A stretch of DNA of 64,000 nt, from the IMG/VR virus record IMGVR_UViG_3300030047_000014, positions 1 to 64,000 of that record; one strand, 5' to 3'. The DNA comes from a virus. This document shows positions 870 to 43,421 of this stretch, in pieces (within the stretch, counting starts at the first letter, position 1; each line of letters begins with the position of its first letter). The notes beneath the pieces were generated by a model. That model worked only from the letters and a program-made list of their open reading frames with translations, had not been told where the DNA came from and ran no database searches. A program made the position numbers and the translations under genes.

Positions 870-2726
870 TTACACTTCATTTTTCTCTACTTCTATTTCT
901 ATAGGAATATCAGCTCCCATAATTTTTTCAATTATTTTGGTTCTAATTTCTTCTGTTAGTTCTGGATTATCATTAAGAAGATCAGCGACACCTTTAATTC
1001 CTTGTCCAATCTTTGTTTCACCATAACTAAACCAGGAACCTGCTTTTTGAATGATATTAAACTCTACACCAAGATCTACAATTTCTTTTACTTTATCAAT
1101 TCCTACTCCCCAGACTACATCAAATTGACTTACTCTATATGGAGGACACATCTTATTCTTAATAGCTTTAATCTTAGTAACATTACCATAATTTACATCT
1201 CCATCTTTAGCCATTGATTTACTAATTTCTAATCTACAATCAGAATAGAACTTTAAAGCATGACCTCCTTGCGTAGTTGCAGGGTTGCCAAACATTACAC
1301 CAATCTTTTCTCTAAATTGACTTACTACAATAACACAAGTCTTATTCTGAACTAATAGACTCTTTAATGAGGGATAAGCTCCATTATTTAAACGAGCTTT
1401 CTTACCTATAGAAGAATCTCCCATATCACCTTCTAATACTGATTTAGGTATTAAAGAGGAATCTGAATCAATTACTAGTAGATCAAGTTTTCCACTCATT
1501 ATCATTTCTTTAGCAACCTGGAATCCTTCTTCTCCTGAAGATGGTTGAGAAATTAAAAGTTTTGAGGTATCAACACCAAGAGCTGTGAAATAATTTTTAT
1601 CAATAGCATGTTCACCATCAATACACATTGCAACACCACCTGCTTTTTGACATTCAGCTATTGCATGACCACATACTGTTGATTTACCTGAATTATGGAC
1701 TACTATCCCTTGTGCAATAAAATTATTATAGGGAAACTCACACTTAATATCATAGGTTTCCATTTCTCCTACAGAAGTAATACTTTCAATTATATCGGGA
1801 GTAACCATAAATCTAAGGTTATTGTGATTTGCTAAAGCATGTAGTCTATCATGGACAGAGTTACTTAGAAGTTCCAAATTAGAAGGGTTATTATTTAACG
1901 TATTCTCATCAATATGATGAACATCATAGCCTTCAGGTATGGTCCAAAAATCTATTGGAAGATACTCTACAGTATTAAGCATTTTTTTGTAATTATAATA
2001 ACTCATATTATTTTGAGTTGCTTCAAATGTAAGTCTATGGACTGTTTCTCTAAAGTAAGGATAACCATTAATCATTCTTGGTTTACCTCTATAGTAAAAC
2101 TTCATTGTAGTCTCTGCATACTTATTTCTATGAGATATCTTTTCTTTTATATAAGGAGTATTATTATGAATAAATACAGTATCTCCTTTTGATAGATCAG
2201 ATAATGATACATAGTTAGTTCCTGTGTAGAATTTATGATCTTTAGTAGTTTTAATTCTAAATCCATCTTTAGTTATAAGTTCAAAGCATTCTTTAACCCC
2301 AGATTTTACTACATCTAATATTGGATTTCTGAATACCCGATCTTCTTCATTTATGGAAGTCACATTAAACTCTGATTCTTCTGTTATATGATTCCTATTA
2401 TGAAATCTATCATACAGATGTTTGATAGTAGACCCTTTACAGTCTTGAACAACTCCATTGGGTTTGACTGTTATAAATTTGATGTAGGTATCTTCTGCAA
2501 GACATCCTTCCCAACCTATTAGTTCATAAAGTTTACCTTTAGCCCAACCACCAATTCCTAATGTAATATAATCTATTCCTAGTGATCCAGAACTGATTAC
2601 ATCATACTTACCTTTTATTTTTCCATCCAAGGTTAAGACTGTTCCTATTCCGTATGCTTTGTTTAGATGCTCTAAAGCTTGTTGTAGTTTATCTACATGT
2701 ACTTCTACTTCTTTTGCCTTTGCCAT
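870..2726 (-). CDS. recA: RecA recombinase containing an intein (347 aa after splicing)
   Basis: ISSGSLGID, ELIGWEG|SGKST Walker A, IDGEHAID, LLVIDS, QFREKIGVMFGNPATTQGGHALKFYS, KAIKNKMCPPYR. Confidence 0.97.
   Translation of the reverse strand: MAKAKEVEVHVDKLQQALEHLNKAYGIGTVLTLDGKIKGKYDVISSGSLGIDYITLGIGGWAKGKLYELIGWEGCLAEDTYIKFITVKPNGVVQDCKGSTIKHLYDRFHNRNHITEESEFNVTSINEEDRVFRNPILDVVKSGVKECFELITKDGFRIKTTKDHKFYTGTNYVSLSDLSKGDTVFIHNNTPYIKEKISHRNKYAETTMKFYYRGKPRMINGYPYFRETVHRLTFEATQNNMSYYNYKKMLNTVEYLPIDFWTIPEGYDVHHIDENTLNNNPSNLELLSNSVHDRLHALANHNNLRFMVTPDIIESITSVGEMETYDIKCEFPYNNFIAQGIVVHNSGKSTVCGHAIAECQKAGGVAMCIDGEHAIDKNYFTALGVDTSKLLISQPSSGEEGFQVAKEMIMSGKLDLLVIDSDSSLIPKSVLEGDMGDSSIGKKARLNNGAYPSLKSLLVQNKTCVIVVSQFREKIGVMFGNPATTQGGHALKFYSDCRLEISKSMAKDGDVNYGNVTKIKAIKNKMCPPYRVSQFDVVWGVGIDKVKEIVDLGVEFNIIQKAGSWFSYGETKIGQGIKGVADLLNDNPELTEEIRTKIIEKIMGADIPIEIEVEKNEV
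1692..2504 (-). mobile_element. 271-aa intein with HNH endonuclease, inserted in the RecA P-loop
   Basis: Starts CLAEDT, block B TKDHKF, ends VVHN followed by Ser; internal VHHIDENTLNNNPSNLELL...H. Confidence 0.95.
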
Positions 2727-6357: not shown

Positions 6358-7710
6358 TTATTTAATTAGAGAAATTCTATTAGCTATTTCACTCTTCATA
6401 GTCTGTAGAGAATTCACAATATCATTTATCTCTATTGTAGAGATTGCAGGTAAACTGAATTCATGCTTACTTGTTTCAGCAACAAATCCTGCTTTAACTT
6501 TTGCTTCAAGACCTTCTAATTCATCAATAGCATATTTCTCATCCAGTTGAAGAAAATCAAAGTCTGAACTGCTCATAATTTGATTTGCTTCTTCAACTGT
6601 AGTTACCATAAATGGTAAGTATTCCCAACATCTGCCTTTTACCTCTCCAATACCAACTACTTTCATAGGATTATGAAGGGTAAATATTGTTGTATTTCCA
6701 CAAAGAACATAGGGAGCTGTATGACCTGCAAAATGTAAGCCTGCTTCACCACAATCTGCAGTAGACCAACTACACTCTTCAGGAGGCATATTTACCACAC
6801 GCCCAATACGAATATCAAAAGTATGGGTACGACCATCTGTATACCGATTCTCTTCCATAGTAGGAAGATCCAGATACAGATTTTTTAAATTACCTATTAC
6901 TTCATGTCCCATTGTTTTCTCTTCAGGAATATCAGTAATTTTAGTAAAATAAAGATTGCCTTCATTATTCTTATATACACAATAATCAGAAGGTTTCTTC
7001 TTCCATACAGTTTTGATCTTGTTATAAGTGTTGGTAATAAAATTTACCATACCATCCTCATCTGTATCCTTTATTTGAACAACATTACGAAGAGCCACAA
7101 AGAATCCCTGTTTAGTAATCTTAAAGTCATTCTTCATTAAGAAGTCATAAAGCTGATCAGCTACTTCTGCTCTTGGATTCAAACAACACCACATAAAGAA
7201 TCTTTTAAGAGCTTGGTACATTTCATTCTTCAATAAAAGATCTTCTGTCTGCTGTACTGTATATTCACTATAATCACTTAAGATTTCAGCAAATTTGTTT
7301 ATTAAAAGTTTTGGCAAACTTCTGTTGATTCCAGTAAGATAAACACTATTATCTTCTACTTTAAAGTCACCAAAATTCTTAAGTACTTCAAATCCTTTAT
7401 TGATAGTCTTAATTTGTTCAAGCTCAACTCTCTTATCCTCTTTATCATCTACTACGTCCCTATTAGCAATTACCTCTAGGATATCTGCAAGATTAGATGC
7501 AGCTTTAACTGCCTCAAAATCTGCAGCAGTACACCCTACCTTGTTTAAGATAGATCCATCATGCATAACTACCACCAGAGTATCACTTATTAGATTCAAT
7601 CTCTTATAAGGTTTCTCTGTTACTGAAATAATTCCTTCTTTTTCAGTTACTTTTTCAACTACTTCTTTTTCTTTGTTCTTTTTAAACCAATTTAAACTAA
7701 ATAAACTCAT
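6358..7710 (-). CDS. rIIB: rIIB-like protein
   Basis: ALKRFFMWCCLNP, QLYDFL, ITKQGFFVALRNV, VVNMP...DCGEAGLHF, KGRCWEY; directly downstream of rIIA. Confidence 0.8.
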   Translation of the reverse strand: MSLFSLNWFKKNKEKEVVEKVTEKEGIISVTEKPYKRLNLISDTLVVVMHDGSILNKVGCTAADFEAVKAASNLADILEVIANRDVVDDKEDKRVELEQIKTINKGFEVLKNFGDFKVEDNSVYLTGINRSLPKLLINKFAEILSDYSEYTVQQTEDLLLKNEMYQALKRFFMWCCLNPRAEVADQLYDFLMKNDFKITKQGFFVALRNVVQIKDTDEDGMVNFITNTYNKIKTVWKKKPSDYCVYKNNEGNLYFTKITDIPEEKTMGHEVIGNLKNLYLDLPTMEENRYTDGRTHTFDIRIGRVVNMPPEECSWSTADCGEAGLHFAGHTAPYVLCGNTTIFTLHNPMKVVGIGEVKGRCWEYLPFMVTTVEEANQIMSSSDFDFLQLDEKYAIDELEGLEAKVKAGFVAETSKHEFSLPAISTIEINDIVNSLQTMKSEIANRISLIK

Positions 7711-7730
7711 AATACTTGATTTTTAATTGT

Positions 7731-9740
7731 TTACACTTCTTCTTCTTCAATCACTGATTCTACTTCAGAACCATCTTCCAATAGATTATCAACAGTTTCA
7801 TCTGTTAAGATTTCATCCATCCAGGTAGTATCATTTAATGTGATATTATAATTGGTATAATCTATTCTGATTTTGTAATACTTTAGCATATCACATAAAA
7901 TACTAATTAAAGCCTTATCCTCATTATTTTCTACATCTCTCTCATATCTATCCATACTACCTAAGAGAATATTTATAAAAGGTAATTTCTTTAGAAAGTC
8001 ATTGACATTTGTATAGATATGATAGATCTCCTGATCAAATAGACTATGTTCTTCTGCAACTGTAAGCATTGCATCATATAAAGTACTATCTGATCTCTTG
8101 TAATTAAGTGCTTCATAATTAGCTAATAATCTTATTTTCTCTATTAAATCTTTTGAAACAGTTTTAAGATGGAATGTCTTATTAAATACTGCAGGATATT
8201 CATCCATTAATTTCTTAATCTTATATGCTGTAACAAGTCTTTTAAATGGTTTATTATCTCCTTCCATAAATTTTTTATATGATATTAAATTATGAATTTT
8301 AAGTTTTTCTAAGTTACTTATTTCTCTTTCAGAGAATGTTATACATCTTATTTTACCCAGACTACCCACAATATTGTATAAATTATCTAACTTATCATTG
8401 TTGTCATGGGTATCATAGATAATAAGAGCACCAATATTATGAAGATTTTCATATTTAAGGGTTGTTGCTACAAATTTACAACTTCTCCCCTGTACATATC
8501 TCTCTAATGGTTGTGCTACTTTACAAGAAAATTCTCCCTGAAGTTTTACTCTTCTATTTCCTCCTTGAGATATAGATAATCTTTGTCTTTTCCTGGAATC
8601 TAACCACTCTTGGGATACTTCAATCTCATCAACATTAATAAATTTAGAGATGAGTAAAGATTGGACAAATTGATATTCTTTAATCATTGTTCTCCATTCC
8701 TCTCTAGGATACTTCTTAAGTTTAAGAATTTTCATATAATTCTCAACCTCAAAGTACTCAGCTCTAAGACCCAGATTATACTTACTTACCTTCTTTACTA
8801 AATAGACAGTATCATACCCATTAAGAGTACTTTTAAGATATTCTTTCTTAAGAAAACTCATAGGAATATTATACAAATAGTACTTCTTACTTGAATTGTT
8901 TAAATTTGATACAGTAACATCACTACTTTTTCTTTTATTAAGTTCTTTTATTCTATAAAAAGAAGCCTCAAATTTAATCTTATATTCTCCAAGAAGTTTA
9001 TCTTTATTATCTACAACTCTCTCCAGATCCAAGAGAGTTATTTCTTCAAGTTTTGGTTTAATCAAAGCTTTTGTAGAGAAAGGAAGAAATGTTCTAACAT
9101 CAAAATTCTTCCCAATATCATCACAAATACTTACATATTTCTCCTTGAAATTATAATACTTAAAGATATCATCTAAACTCTTTGTATCTGTAATAGACTC
9201 ATTATACTTATCAATAAAATATTCTGCTACAAGCTTTATCTTACTTAATATAGTAGCTTTAGCTTCTGAGGTATATCGTAGAGATTCTCTATTTGGTGTA
9301 GGAAATAATCCATCAGATAAAGAGAATCTTAATCCAATAGGAGCCTCAATTCTGGGAATATTCATTTTACCAAAATCAATTGGATAGTAAACATTATCCA
9401 GGCATATATGAAGACTATTATCTGAAGTATTTTCAGAATATTGGAACTCAGATCCACGATGTATCTTGAAATCATTAGACATACCAGTAAATATATCATA
9501 GTAGACATCTTCAAAATAAGCAAGTTGCTCTTTTATCTTATTAAGAAAATCATGCCTATCACTAAAACTAACAGGAACTATAACCTTTACACCATCTCCC
9601 TCATCAGTTTCAGTTTCATACAAAGGATCAATAGTATTACCATTTTCTCCTTCATACATCATGTATTTACGTTCTATTCCATCTTTCCTGGCTATGAAAT
9701 AAAATGCTGATGTATAAGCAAGTGGAGATTTAAAACCTAG
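7731..9740 (-). CDS. rIIA: rIIA-like protein, exon 2
   Basis: The frame extends upstream of the listed ORF as LGFKSPLAYTSAFYF...; contains LFPTPNRESLRY. Confidence 0.88.
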   Translation of the reverse strand, partial: LGFKSPLAYTSAFYFIARKDGIERKYMMYEGENGNTIDPLYETETDEGDGVKVIVPVSFSDRHDFLNKIKEQLAYFEDVYYDIFTGMSNDFKIHRGSEFQYSENTSDNSLHICLDNVYYPIDFGKMNIPRIEAPIGLRFSLSDGLFPTPNRESLRYTSEAKATILSKIKLVAEYFIDKYNESITDTKSLDDIFKYYNFKEKYVSICDDIGKNFDVRTFLPFSTKALIKPKLEEITLLDLERVVDNKDKLLGEYKIKFEASFYRIKELNKRKSSDVTVSNLNNSSKKYYLYNIPMSFLKKEYLKSTLNGYDTVYLVKKVSKYNLGLRAEYFEVENYMKILKLKKYPREEWRTMIKEYQFVQSLLISKFINVDEIEVSQEWLDSRKRQRLSISQGGNRRVKLQGEFSCKVAQPLERYVQGRSCKFVATTLKYENLHNIGALIIYDTHDNNDKLDNLYNIVGSLGKIRCITFSEREISNLEKLKIHNLISYKKFMEGDNKPFKRLVTAYKIKKLMDEYPAVFNKTFHLKTVSKDLIEKIRLLANYEALNYKRSDSTLYDAMLTVAEEHSLFDQEIYHIYTNVNDFLKKLPFINILLGSMDRYERDVENNEDKALISILCDMLKYYKIRIDYTNYNITLNDTTWMDEILTDETVDNLLEDGSEVESVIEEEEV

Positions 9741-39891: not shown

Positions 39892-40368
39892 TTAAAGTTT
39901 ATTTAATTCATTTATATATGCTTGAGCAGCATCTTCTTCTTTATTAAATCTTCCTAAGAATTTATTCTTACCATCAATTCTTATTTCACTCCTCCATTTT
40001 TTACAAGAAGATTCCCAAGAAACTCCTGTAAATGTAGAAGTACTTATACTATCTTTAGAGTTATTAACTCTTTGAGTAACTATTTGAAGATTCTTATAGT
40101 AGTTATTTAACTTATTATTATCTCTATGATCAACTACTAAATATCTACCATCTCTCTTTTGATCAAGAAAATAATCAGCAACTAGCAGATGTATAAGTAA
40201 GTGAAACTTCTTACCATTTTTTGATAAATGTGCTTGCAAATAACCATCTCCAACAATACTAGGTTTAAGAAGTTTTCCTCTTTTGTTTTTAATTCCTCCA
40301 TAATTAGAGATTTGATAAAATCCTTCATAACCTAGTATATCTTTCCATTCTTCGTAATCTTTATACAT
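39892..40368 (-). CDS. NUMOD4-HNH-AP2 homing endonuclease
   Basis: EEWKDILGYEGFYQISNYG; IHLLVA...VDHRDNNKLNNYYKNLQ; GVSW...KWRSEI...LGRF. Confidence 0.92.
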   Translation of the reverse strand: MYKDYEEWKDILGYEGFYQISNYGGIKNKRGKLLKPSIVGDGYLQAHLSKNGKKFHLLIHLLVADYFLDQKRDGRYLVVDHRDNNKLNNYYKNLQIVTQRVNNSKDSISTSTFTGVSWESSCKKWRSEIRIDGKNKFLGRFNKEEDAAQAYINELNKL

Positions 40369-40996
40369 TATCTTGTAGATTTAAATAGTTCTGTTGTACC
40401 ATCTTTCTTATTAATCTTAGAATTCCACGTTTGGAACGATCATTCACAAGATTATTATCTAGAAATAGAAATTCATCTGAACTGAAGGATTTAGAAGAAT
40501 AATCAGAGTAGCATTCTCCTGTTTCAATATTGTAATATTTACTATTAAGAGAATAAATACATCCTCCTTGTAAATAAGGGGAGGCAAACTGTTCAAAGAT
40601 TACCTTCTCATCACCATTTTTATTAATAATGACAAAATGACCTGCTAAATGAGGTTTATCCTTCTTTATCTTAGTAATACTATCTTCATAATAGGATTCA
40701 ACATGTTTTAATAACATGAAATAATCAGCTTTCATATCAACACTATATCCTCCTATACGATAGAGAGTATTTCTTAGTTTACGCTCACCTAAATACAAAT
40801 GACAATAATCATCAAAAGAATGAACATTCCATCTCTTACGATATCTATCATCTAATTGAACATGTCTTAGATGTAAACCAGTAGTATCCTCAGGTTTAGT
40901 CTCTGTTAATATAGTAGCAAATAAACCTAATGCTGTAAAAAATCCATGTGTATTTCTCATGATAATATAGAATCTAATTAATAATGTTAATATCAA
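40361..40996 (-). CDS. Hypothetical protein (possible frameshift near the 3' end)
   Basis: ORF track; see findings. Confidence 0.65.
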   Translation of the reverse strand: MILTLLIRFYIIMRNTHGFFTALGLFATILTETKPEDTTGLHLRHVQLDDRYRKRWNVHSFDDYCHLYLGERKLRNTLYRIGGYSVDMKADYFMLLKHVESYYEDSITKIKKDKPHLAGHFVIINKNGDEKVIFEQFASPYLQGGCIYSLNSKYYNIETGECYSDYSSKSFSSDEFLFLDNNLVNDRSKRGILRLIRKMVQQNYLNLQDNV

Positions 40997-41035
40997 ATAA
41001 AAAAGGTGCTCCTCTTATATAGAGAGAAACACCTT
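40997..41035 (-). terminator. Intrinsic terminator ending the tmRNA transcript
   Basis: AAGGTGTTTCTCT-N7-AGAGGAGCACCTT followed by a T-run. Confidence 0.8.
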
Positions 41036-41039
41036 AGTA

Positions 41040-41189
41040 AAAATGTACAACTCTAAGCTGCCATCTTCATTTCACTATTTTCGCCATTTACATGACAATA
41101 CCCATTTTATCAGTTAGTTATCTAAAATGATCTTTAGACTTCTATGATTAGAAACTACCATTTATCTGCTGTCAAAACCAGTCAGCCCC
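41040..41189 (-). ncRNA. ssrA: tmRNA coding piece (5' acceptor strand plus tag reading frame)
   Basis: GGGGCTGACTGGTTTTGACAG 5' end; tag GENSEMKMAA* at 41085-41053 preceded by TAAAT. Confidence 0.9.
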
Positions 41190-41454
41190 TAATAAATTTA
41201 AAAGTATGAAAGATAACATCTCTGTCTCCTTATTCAGTAATTGTGGTTATCTTAATGGTTGTCCTCTTGTGCACAGTTATCTCTAAGTTGAGCCTTTAGC
41301 TTACAATATTACTGATATACTTTCTATACTTTTTACTAATTGGCGATTAGTATGTGGAGTAGAAGTTTACTATATCTTGGCACTGGAGTTATCATGAATA
41401 ACCAGATATTAAAGAATACAATATTTGTCTTGCGAACAAATGAGCTTCTACTTT

Positions 41455-41515
41455 GTGGAGCTGAGGAGAATCGAACTCCTGTCCAAACAGTTTCCTTTAA
41501 TTTCAATGAATATTA
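41455..41515 (-). ncRNA. ssrA: tmRNA acceptor piece (T-arm and 3' acceptor strand), transcribed before the coding piece
   Basis: CTGTTTGGAC AGGAG-TTCGATT-CTCCT CAGCTCC A C; pairs with GGGGCTG including G3.U70; the 5' boundary is approximate. Confidence 0.88.
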
Positions 41516-41523
41516 TATTTTTA

Positions 41524-41531
41524 CAAAGATA
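41524..41531 (-). promoter_or_regulatory. -7 box upstream of the tmRNA acceptor piece
   Basis: TATCTTTG matches TAnnTTTG; no clear -33 TTTG. Confidence 0.55.
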
Positions 41532-41998
41532 TAACAAATTATTAGGACACCGCCTTCCCACGTCCAACCTTTTTGTAATATTAAAATGGTTGCAAAACTT
41601 ACTCCCTAAGTATTAAATTTGTGTCCAGGGCAATTATATCATTGACTGTTACTATTGCGTAGTAATTCAATAGATATTAAATATGTTTTTACAGGCTTTT
41701 TAAGCTCTCACATTCATAGTCGTCTCATAGCAGTTCTTTTTATTTAATATGACTATATAGTCATTGTTATTAATCATCCATTTCATCCTCACTCTCATCC
41801 AGATATTCAGGGTCATAATCAGGACACCCATCATCTTCCCAATTTAACAAATCCATCTCAGTATCCTCAGATAGATAAAGCTTTCGAGATTTAATCATAC
41901 TACTAACAGTTTTTCAATACATACCAGGAAAATAACAGCCACTACCAATGATATGGTAATGGCTGCAAAATAACTCTTAACTACATTTGTTTTCATAG

Positions 41999-43120
41999 CT
42001 AATCCTCCAACAAATAATCAGTATTAATGATAAGAGACAAATCTTCATTATATATCTGTAATTGTACAGGTATAAGCTTATCAATAAGCTCTTTGTCATT
42101 AAATGTGGTAAGCTTATGAGTGACACTATTTCCATTTATTTTGAGATAACCCTTTGATCGCCAAGCAGGTATATGTGTTCTTGCCTGAGACAATGGTAAT
42201 GTACGATAGTACACATAATGATCTGCATATCCTTTAGGTGCACCCTTAAAGGGAGCTAAGAATACTAACTGAAGGTTCTTAGTCCAATAGGACTGTTTAC
42301 CTGTCATTTGTAGTTTAGCTCTAGCCCAAGCACCTCCAAAATAAATAGAAAGTCTTTTCAAATAATCTTCCTTATTAAGATTAGGATACAGTTTCTCATA
42401 TGAAGAGAGATAATGATCTCTTTGTTCTAAAGGTATAATACCCTTCCAACCACTACTCATAAGTACTTTATAAGAATTCAACATCTCTACCATATCAGGA
42501 GCATACTTGATCATATTTTCAGATTCAATCAGGTATTCATAAATAAGAGCTGCAAGCTCATGATTAACCTTCTTAAATCTATCTGCATTCTCCATCTCAC
42601 TCTCAAGTATTACTCTAACAGAGCCATCAGGACATAGTATTTGAACAAGATTCTTGAAGTCATTTGAATAAGAATCAATATTTGCACTAATCATTGATTG
42701 ATTACCCTCAAGTGAGAATAATTCATAACCAGATGTATCTTCCACACGAATAACAATCTCCACACCATTAGGATAATATCTCTTTACTGCTTCAGATAAA
42801 CAAACCAGTCTTTGAATAGCAGATAGTTCTGCTATATCAATAGTAGCACTGAAATCACTCTTAATAGAGCCCCAGGGAACCATGATTGGTATTGCTGTAT
42901 TGTTGTTGATTGCCTCTCTTATTACATCTCTGATTACAACCAAGGATTCAGGTGTAGGCAAACAGCCATACCTTACCTCTTTTGTTCCTATTATCAGATT
43001 AGAGAGGATTTCAACTAAATCTGAGGAACTAAATGTAGCCACATTTGGAAATTGCTCATTAATGTGTAAGCATATCAAATCTCCATATGGCTCTTCAACT
43101 CCAATTATTCTTGTTTTCAT
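41999..43120 (-). CDS. DIT1/PvcA (isocyanide synthase)-like protein
   Basis: IPIMVPWGSIKS...DIAELSAIQRLVCLSEAVKRYYPNGVEIVIRVED...IDSYSNDF...HIPAW parallels the PvcA motif order. Confidence 0.6.
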   Translation of the reverse strand: MKTRIIGVEEPYGDLICLHINEQFPNVATFSSSDLVEILSNLIIGTKEVRYGCLPTPESLVVIRDVIREAINNNTAIPIMVPWGSIKSDFSATIDIAELSAIQRLVCLSEAVKRYYPNGVEIVIRVEDTSGYELFSLEGNQSMISANIDSYSNDFKNLVQILCPDGSVRVILESEMENADRFKKVNHELAALIYEYLIESENMIKYAPDMVEMLNSYKVLMSSGWKGIIPLEQRDHYLSSYEKLYPNLNKEDYLKRLSIYFGGAWARAKLQMTGKQSYWTKNLQLVFLAPFKGAPKGYADHYVYYRTLPLSQARTHIPAWRSKGYLKINGNSVTHKLTTFNDKELIDKLIPVQLQIYNEDLSLIINTDYLLED

Positions 43121-43172
43121 GTTATAGTTATTCTTTAATTAATACTATTGCTATATTATTCTTTGTTTATTC

Positions 43173-43421
43173 TTACCAATCATCACCTGCACCTGCTCCA
43201 CCAAATGAACCACCACCAAATTCAATATCATTAGAAGAACTAGAGATATCAACATCACCACCAATACTTCCAAAGATAACAGCAGCAATTCCCACATTGA
43301 GAATATCATCCACCAATGATTCCTCATGGTAATAATCATACTCTTCTTGTTCTAAATAGGACAAGGATTCATAGGTGACATCATTAATGACATCACCTGT
43401 TAATTTGTGTTTGTATTTCAT
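43173..43421 (-). CDS. Small acidic protein with a Gly-rich C-terminus ending in Trp
   Basis: FGGGSFGGAGAGDDW*. Confidence 0.7.
   Translation of the reverse strand: MKYKHKLTGDVINDVTYESLSYLEQEEYDYYHEESLVDDILNVGIAAVIFGSIGGDVDISSSSNDIEFGGGSFGGAGAGDDW

Follow-up and report, generated by a model that had tools for sequence, protein, structure and literature searches.

A putative permuted two-piece tmRNA gene of Bacteroidota type in a crAss-like phage from peat and a recurrent RNA module in its spacer

Introduction

The subject of this study is a putative transfer-messenger RNA (tmRNA) gene at positions 41531-40997 (minus strand) of a 64,000-nucleotide (nt) stretch of viral DNA, here called the window, which comprises bases 1-64000 of a 120,747-base virus record of the IMG/VR database (IMGVR_UViG_3300030047_000014; CheckV completeness 100%). 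From the comparison of sequences we consider it likely that (i) the gene is genuine, permuted and two-piece, (ii) it belongs to a crAss-like phage and is probably functional, and (iii) it derives from the one-piece tmRNA of Bacteroidota. The gene is regarded as real because a diverged copy exists in syntenic position in a related phage, the two halves covary across the spacer that separates them, independent contigs carry the same arrangement, and the frame of the tag peptide is kept.

An earlier reading of the letters of the window (the sequence-only reading) had proposed a circularly permuted and reduced tmRNA in a phage, and this proposal is supported by a match to the permuted tmRNA model RF04321 of Rfam, by the copy in the related phage and by covariation. 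The novelty that it had attached to the finding was overstated, since phage two-piece tmRNAs have been published (in the accessible portion of PMC9004378), a homolog from Maribacter phage Panino is deposited in GenBank, and 15 of 20 IMG/VR loci pass the RF04321 cut-off. A literature search found no paper on a Bacteroidota-type permuted phage tmRNA family; the tmRNA of the window joins a phage family that is already annotated and apparently undescribed, and a permuted phage tmRNA is as such of low to moderate novelty. The new points are a conserved RNA module in the spacer and the blind spot of annotation programs for genes with long spacers.

Gene Order and Predicted Structure

Coordinates of the tmRNA gene are given in descending order throughout. 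Read directly from 41531 to 40997, the order of parts is a -7-like box, the tmRNA 3′ part, a 265-nt spacer, the 5′ part, the tag and a terminator, in exact agreement with the sequence-only reading. The permuted order of acceptor piece, intervening segment and coding piece was also found in independent contigs.

The acceptor piece (41518-41455, the start of its 5′ tail being inferred) was delimited using the RF04321 alignment, covariation and cofolding. Its tail strand AUAAUAUUCAUU (41516-41505) could form 12 base pairs (bp) with 41106-41095, just 5′ of the resume codon, a helix length that was reached by 11 of 500 shuffled sequences. The 3′ strand of helix P2a (CTGTT, 41490-41486), which is followed by TGGAC, and the T-arm AGGAG-TTCGATT-CTCCT (41480-41464) were identified by direct reading. 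They are followed by the acceptor 3′ strand CAGCTCC (41463-41457), the discriminator A41456 and C41455, so that the gene encodes no more of CCA than its first C. The intervening segment (41454-41190, 265 nt) is presumably excised during maturation. The coding piece (41189-40997) starts with the acceptor 5′ strand GGGGCTG (41189-41183), which is followed by ACTGGTTTTGAC with the D-loop analogue ACUGGUUUUGAC, and continues with the P2a 5′ strand AGCAG (41170-41166), an 80-nt linker with a hairpin domain predicted by nested folding, the tag and the terminator.

The acceptor stem is paired at seven of seven positions, including G3.U70, and CTGTT and AGCAG form five pairs; the perfect pairing of the halves had been claimed before and holds. 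Together with the T-loop UUCGAUU and the missing anticodon arm these are the features of the tRNA-like domain of a tmRNA, and an unconstrained cofold of the two pieces gave back both the acceptor stem and the T-arm. The tag frame GGC GAA AAT AGT GAA ATG AAG ATG GCA GCT (41085-41056; GENSEMKMAA) ends at a TAG stop codon (41055-41053). It shows the resume codon GGC, preceded by GUAAAU, lacks a start codon and has a hydrophobic end (...AA). A hairpin of 13 pairs followed by a T run (41035-41003) resembles an intrinsic terminator; two terminator-like sites occur in 1.5 kb, as against 0.3 in shuffled sequences. Only this terminator follows the tag, as the sequence-only reading had noted in stating that no tmRNA 3′ end is found there, and pseudoknots 2 to 4 are therefore absent.

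The box TATCTTTG (41531-41524), a candidate promoter of the precursor, matches TAnnTTTG, which we take to be the -7 promoter consensus of Bacteroidota. The box that had been proposed as a promoter is thus present, and a counterpart (TATATTTG) stands in the related phage described below, but the window shows no enrichment of the motif TANNTTTG (100 matches versus 89 +/- 9 in shuffled sequences). The motif was dropped as a host marker, and the evidence for the box as a promoter is weak.

A 15-codon frame (MLSFILLNLLGADWF, then a stop codon; 41184-41231, minus strand) bridges the end of the spacer and the start of the coding piece and is preceded by AAGGAG and 6 nt before its ATG; it is probably due to chance.

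A Diverged Copy, a Homolog Family and Independent Contigs

The diverged copy was found by an Rfam search of whole records in a complete related phage (G001; 117.6 kb with terminal repeats, terminase 78% identical), which a strict motif regular expression had missed. Its permuted tmRNA scores 46.2 bits with RF04321 (cut-off 47). As in the window, tmRNA and terminase are on opposite strands, with the tmRNA about 5 kb upstream. The TATATTTG box stands ahead of the gene at a position equivalent to that of the -7-like box. The acceptor strands differ on both sides (GGGGGUG/CACCUCC versus GGGGCUG/CAGCUCC in the window), and in P2a a C-G pair of the window is replaced by G.U. The spacer has 97 nt, and a terminator follows the tag GNTVEMNRQSFRMAA, which also ends in MAA, the final Ala-Ala being encoded by codons other than those of the window. 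The tail helix of this phage has 10 bp of other sequence in the same geometry as the 12 bp of the window; in both phages it joins the 5′ tail of the acceptor piece to a segment that ends 9 nt before the resume codon.

A pattern of the 3′ part retrieved 30 IMG/VR loci, of which 20 were scanned with Rfam. Fifteen exceeded the RF04321 cut-off (52-78 bits), four were standard tmRNAs and one was a fragment alone. An alignment (A1) was constructed from 17 sequences, namely the window, G001, Panino and 14 distinct IMG/VR sequences. Three helices contained 95.8% paired cells in this alignment, compared to 50-62% when the partners were slid. The covariation that the sequence-only reading had suggested looking for is seen in seven pairs with two-sided changes among these 17 homologs; one acceptor pair that spans the spacer is CG in 11 sequences, UA in three, GC in two and AU in one, and G3.U70 occurs in 17 of 17. 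A tag frame ending in AA or VA is found in 16 of the 17 sequences, with the stop 90-134 nt from G1, and mostly begins at GGC after AUAAC or AUAAA. A terminator hairpin follows the gene in most of the homologs. The spacers of the family range from 16 to 308 nt, and that of the window is therefore not unique by its length.

Two contigs assembled independently from peat metagenomes, in runs that are not flagged as the possible source of the record, cover the locus with 0 differences (X5, 7275 nt, covering 40900-41551; X6, 1445 nt, covering 41017-41650), and mis-assembly, which the sequence-only reading had named as the outcome that would overturn it, is excluded by them. The runs behind these contigs come from one year and habitat and may represent a single campaign. 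X6 and a further run (X7) contain a second strain, the coding piece of which has diverged by about 10%, with the tag frame kept (GTNNEMKMAA, as translated from the listed differences). In this variant a G to A change opposite U preserves a pair of the linker hairpin, and the change of U41100 to C would break a pair of the tail helix unless the tail has changed as well. In X7, 68 other letters replace 258 nt (41196-41453), leaving a spacer of about 75 nt; X7 covers 41368-41445 only through the joint of the variant, from which no inference was drawn.

Bacteroidota-Type Signature and Origin of the Permutation

The same 3′ pattern was searched with one genome per species and gave at least 120 loci. 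The counts in this paragraph refer to the matches listed (120), a comparison set that was selected by the 3′ motif. Eighty of them carry titles, nearly all of which name Bacteroidota. A one-piece gene with its 5′ end 250-480 nt upstream was recognized in 73 and a permuted gene in none, while 47 were undecided, mostly because the flank was limited to 300 nt; the statement that ssrA of Bacteroidota is generally one-piece agrees with this. These host-type genes are 317-425 nt long and have 5′ ends of the form GGGG.TGA..GG.TTTGACAGC(A/G)G, resembling that of the window. Their tags are GENNYALAA-like (25 of 72 begin with GEN and 5 of 72 end in MAA), and the resume codon GGC follows UUAAUU, UUAUCU, UUAAAU and similar hexamers, UUAAAU directly followed by GGCGAAAA being among them. 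CCA is rarely encoded (CTCCAC continues with CA in 6 of 120), and AAA, which the window also has, is the most frequent continuation.

The window shares with these genes the 3′ motif CUGUUUGGAC, the 5′ motif UUUGAC-AGC(A/G)G, the resume codon GGC and a tag that begins with G. Its tRNA-like domain is near-identical to that of one-piece Bacteroidota tmRNAs (RF00023) in both halves, including the D-loop analogue UUUGAC, and the lack of an encoded CCA and a tag that starts with GEN... and finishes with ...AA are further likenesses, whereas the order and length of the one-piece genes (standard, 317-425 nt) are different. One-piece Bacteroidota tmRNAs possess a full ring of pseudoknots. RF04321 gave no match above its cut-off in 101 sampled Bacteroidota genomes, and two weak matches were rejected as 5′ halves of ordinary one-piece genes. 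The lineage models of the set RF01849-RF01851 scored the homologs far below their cut-offs (alphaproteobacterial 29.9 versus 50, cyanobacterial at most 41.4 versus 70, betaproteobacterial at most 49.6 versus 84).

The gene is likely to represent a phage-borne permutation of a Bacteroidota-type one-piece tmRNA in minimised form. This derivation is proposed because the sequence signatures match those of one-piece Bacteroidota tmRNAs, that is, on signatures and not on a phylogeny, and the same signatures favour an independent origin of the permutation. The phage family may be a further origin of tmRNA permutation, and if functional it would define a minimal working core in which a tRNA-like domain and a tag are accompanied by a single helix.

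Comparison with Known Two-Piece tmRNAs

Three forms of tmRNA genes are distinguished in the available part of a recent account (PMC11915505), according to which a permuted gene yields an acceptor and a coding piece that base-pair with each other, RF04321 was built from alphaproteobacterial, betaproteobacterial and cyanobacterial seeds, and the tmRNA database holds 79 phage sequences. The two-piece tmRNAs of Caulobacter and other Alphaproteobacteria, of a betaproteobacterial lineage and of some cyanobacteria (RF01849-RF01851, RF04321) have a permuted two-piece gene like the window, but these are cellular genes specific to their lineages, and they are longer and possess pseudoknots and encoded tails. 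Among phages, 53 of 133 unique tmRNAs were classified as two-piece by ARAGORN, mostly from aquatic phages (accessible portion of PMC9004378). Those of OM43 phage Melnitz, pelagiphages and cyanophages are likewise phage-encoded, permuted ssrA, but as far as that portion extends they follow alphaproteobacterial, betaproteobacterial or cyanobacterial host lineages, whereas the family of the window carries Bacteroidota signatures.

In Table S1 of the same study there are five rows for Bacteroidetes, of which only Cellulophaga phage phi4:1 is labelled ‘Permuted’ (PMC9004378). The permuted call in this phage (NC_021788; L265:13919-14580) was rejected in our analysis, as it spans the genes for tRNA-Tyr, tRNA-Ser and tRNA-Asn and is not matched by RF04321; the table entry is probably a false positive.

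Maribacter phage Panino, the host of which is a Bacteroidota bacterium, carries a true homolog that is annotated as tmRNA in GenBank (PP540027, 27557-27889; PMC11590407). It resembles the window in the order of parts, in the signature CTGTTTGGAC ... GACAGCAG, in the lack of an encoded CCA and in the short coding piece. It differs from the window in its location within a tRNA array, in the tag given by ARAGORN (GKVMNVSFAPTVRQFA) and in a spacer of only 39 nt, because of which it is detected by ARAGORN and by RF04321 (63.9 bits). The paper mentions the tmRNA and, in its accessible text, makes no mention of a permutation (PMC11590407). A crAss-like phage from peat is now added to this phage-borne family of minimal Bacteroidota-type two-piece tmRNAs.

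One IMG/VR contig (L004) carries a standard tmRNA (463-808, 114.7 bits) and, about 560 nt later, a GOLLD RNA (1372-1790; RF02032, 281.8 bits).

A Conserved RNA Module in the Spacer

A 36-nt match of the spacer to the human-gut crAssphage cr126_1 led to an invariant 22-nt core, GAGGACAACCATTAAGATAACC (41266-41245). The matches to this core and a covarying closing helix (P1) delimit a conserved module of 82 nt (41315-41234), in which TCAGTAAT (41315-41308) forms the 5′ strand and ATTACTGA (41241-41234) the 3′ strand of P1. Exact copies of the core were found in 8 IMG/VR and 13 metagenome loci, two sets that share some contigs (L238-L246, L248-L260).

The module occurs in five settings. The first is the spacer of permuted tmRNAs, of which there are two, since in L252 the module lies in the spacer of a second, divergent permuted tmRNA and ends 8 nt before G1. 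Secondly, it is found between or upstream of tRNA genes: in cr126_1 and its relatives between two tRNA-Lys genes, and in L240, L244 and L258 upstream of a tRNA. Thirdly, in L241, L245, L250, L253, L255 and L259 the module replaces the anticodon arm of a conserved tRNA-like gene, which has an acceptor, D-arm and T-arm and scores 38.5-39.4 bits over 158 nt with the Rfam tRNA model (L241:425-582, L245:426-582). ARAGORN calls this gene a ‘tRNA-Leu(taa)’ with a 64-nt intron, an assignment that was rejected for its poor anticodon stem. Fourthly, in L246 the module adjoins a tmRNA-like 3′ end. The fifth setting is free-standing, with a promoter-like box and a terminator-like end; a TATATTTG box and a U-rich end accompany the copies of L240, L244 and L258, which by eye share about 85% of their letters with the window along some 115 nt.

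The 3′ strand of P1 begins 0-3 nt after the core and the 5′ strand ends 32-41 nt before it. In seven of the eight sequence versions P1 has 7-12 pairs, and the paired sequences are unrelated to each other. The helix was tested by a script with a geometry window that was fixed after the data had been seen; as many pairs were reached by 11 of 2000 shuffled sequences for the window, by 0 of 2000 for L252, by 1 of 2000 for L254 and by at most 78 of 2000 for four others, and the result for L243 was not significant. The fold of the whole spacer has a z-score of only -1.0.

No Rfam family matched the module at E<=10 or E<=1. The core was absent from 401 sampled Bacteroidota genomes, where one match with two mismatches fell in coding-looking DNA, its string was not found in the literature, and no diverged copies of the module were found in 1.77 Mb of collected loci. 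The spacer is not repeated elsewhere in the phage genome. A contig from a soil RNA library (X24) contains 83 nt of the module region followed by unlike sequence, and shows neither transcription nor processing of the locus.

Our best guess is that the module would be a stable small RNA freed by tRNA-type processing. That it represents an undescribed class of small structured phage RNAs riding on such processing is a tentative proposal, which we hold to be somewhat more doubtful than probable. If it is correct, the tmRNA spacer would be a cargo slot from which RNase P and 3′-end trimming would release a second functional RNA, possibly a ribozyme, a protein-binding RNA or a decoy; the module suggests that the segment discarded from two-piece tmRNA genes may serve to carry extra cargo.

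The spacers of four other family members (L007, L015, L016, L021) share a conserved GTTGTCGCTAACCCGTCGCGTTAGTACGG-like stretch (A1 columns ~290-320), which may be a second kind of spacer element.

The Phage, Its Relatives and Host

The phage is crAss-like and comes from peat. Its large terminase has 452 relatives in IMG/VR; among isolates it is most similar to that of Leptolyngbya phage Lbo-JY46 (38.6%). Identity falls to about 29.5% in two Cellulophaga phages (phi17:2 and phi4:1) and to about 27% in crAss-like phages of the gut. By PHROGs annotation, the plus strand encodes a terminase, a portal and a major head protein from 47.6 kb onwards, and the minus strand carries replication genes. The tmRNA belongs to a block of small, leftward-oriented genes (36-45.8 kb), which is variable and not conserved among relatives: no DNA similarity to 40300-43200 was detected among 80 related loci, and the flanking open reading frame (ORF) 40361-40960 has no relatives in viral contigs. 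The earlier statement that smpB is missing from the window holds and extends to the whole 120.7-kb genome, where no smpB was found. The host is probably a member of the Bacteroidota, as far as the tmRNA signature indicates.

Detection by Annotation Tools and Weighing of Alternative Explanations

Several observations weigh against a functional tmRNA of Bacteroidota descent. Run with default settings on the window and on the whole genome, ARAGORN predicted neither tRNA nor tmRNA genes, and a scan of the window at Rfam gathering thresholds gave no match. In E-value mode RF04321 matched 41496-41159 (38.6 bits, E 6.5e-6), which is below the gathering cut-off of 47 and covers only model positions 20-119. 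The sequence-only reading had suggested running these programs, and their outcome is a silent ARAGORN and a sub-threshold Rfam match. No pseudoknot was identified in the tmRNA of the window by nested folding, no dedicated pseudoknot search having been made. With a size far below the 317-425 nt of host genes, function cannot be assumed, and the T-loop of G001 is atypical (CUCGUUA). The alignment A1 was collected by a scanner that demands acceptor and T-stem pairing, so that the 100% pairing of these stems is partly built in; for nine of the loci the 5′ motif had been located earlier without a pairing rule. RF04321 detected a tmRNA in one of five whole related genomes, namely G001, and only 2 of 80 related loci carry one when 10 kb around the terminase are scanned (L034 and L047, both identical in the tmRNA to the window). 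The tmRNA is dispensable for this phage clade and its occurrence is sporadic. Lastly, the nearest isolate by terminase (38.6% identity) infects the cyanobacterium Leptolyngbya; of the earlier assignment to a Bacteroidota phage, the tmRNA signature stands and the host is put in question by this relative.

The low score can be reconciled with a real gene, as the RF04321 alignment spans P2a, the T-arm and the acceptor stem with one long insertion between them, and the shortfall fits the 265-nt insertion and unmatched tails. A descriptor scanner, composed of the T-arm, a downstream 7-bp acceptor partner with G3.U70, GAC and P2a, gave exactly one match in the 64-kb window and, across 80 related loci, none beyond the tmRNA of L034 and L047. 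Relaxed ARAGORN settings (-ps80) produced eight spurious calls elsewhere and none at the tmRNA locus. Phage tmRNA genes with long spacers escape standard annotators, and because ARAGORN is silent and Rfam remains below its cut-off for such genes, current counts of phage tmRNAs are too low.

The strongest competitor, which we nevertheless regard as unlikely, is a tmRNA-derived RNA without trans-translation, such as a relic, a decoy of SmpB or alanyl-tRNA synthetase, or a blocker of the host tmRNA. The strong reduction with no pseudoknots identified, the sporadic presence among relatives and the deviant T-loop of G001 would be expected under this explanation, for which the available part of PMC11915505 supplies a precedent in the tmRNA of mycobacteriophage DS6A, which lacks the coding sequence. 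It does not account well for the preservation of tag frame, GGC resume codon and terminal ...AA in 16 of 17 family members and again in the variant of about 10% divergence, or for the invariance of the alanine identity pair.

We find it quite improbable that the spacer module is the main product, with the tmRNA halves serving chiefly as processing handles that provide RNase P and 3′-end sites. The invariant core of the module and its recurrence beside or inside tRNA-type genes (the tmRNA spacer of L252, the tRNA array of the gut crAssphage and the tRNA-like genes) speak for such a role, but the module is missing from the tmRNA genes of the close variant and of every other family member, and the tag frame is conserved independently of it.

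That an attP-type 3′ end of a host tmRNA came to lie by chance upstream of a 5′ fragment, or that the contig is chimeric, is hardly credible: tmRNA 3′ ends are common phage attachment sites, and the pattern scan did yield four standard tmRNAs and one lone fragment among 20 loci, but independent contigs that cross the region show 0 differences, covariation links the acceptor strands on either side of the spacer, the diverged copy in G001 is syntenic and no tyrosine integrase was found in the phage genome.

Proposed Mechanism

For a functional two-piece tmRNA as preferred here, transcription from a promoter near 41531 would yield a single precursor that ends at the terminator (41035-41003). Cleavage 5′ of G41189 would be due to host RNase P, trimming of the spacer as far as A41456/C41455 to host 3′-end enzymes, and completion of CCA to the CCA-adding enzyme. 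The products would be an acceptor piece of about 64 nt and a coding piece of about 190 nt, joined by the 7-bp acceptor stem, P2a and the tail helix. After charging by the host alanyl-tRNA synthetase through G3.U70, the RNA would be brought to stalled ribosomes by host SmpB, the use of which we infer from the lack of smpB in the phage genome, and resumption on GGC would add (A)GENSEMKMAA. The presumed benefit is that ribosomes remain available when infection entails the cutting of host and phage mRNAs, or once defence nucleases have acted, with truncated proteins additionally marked for degradation; the counter-defence role suggested by the sequence-only reading may be part of this benefit. The long spacer would be lineage-specific cargo, and the same processing would release the folded 82-nt RNA.

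Neighboring Genes

Two genes downstream of the tmRNA lies an HNH endonuclease gene (39892-40368, minus strand; phrog_59, E 2e-29). A 618-aa ORF at 870-2726 (minus strand) combines HNH-endonuclease matches at residues 227-303 with a UvsX-like recombinase match at 345-521 and may be an insertion or fusion. RIIB-like and RIIA-like genes are adjacent at 6358-9662 (minus strand), both with weak PHROG matches (E 1e-12 to 1e-14).

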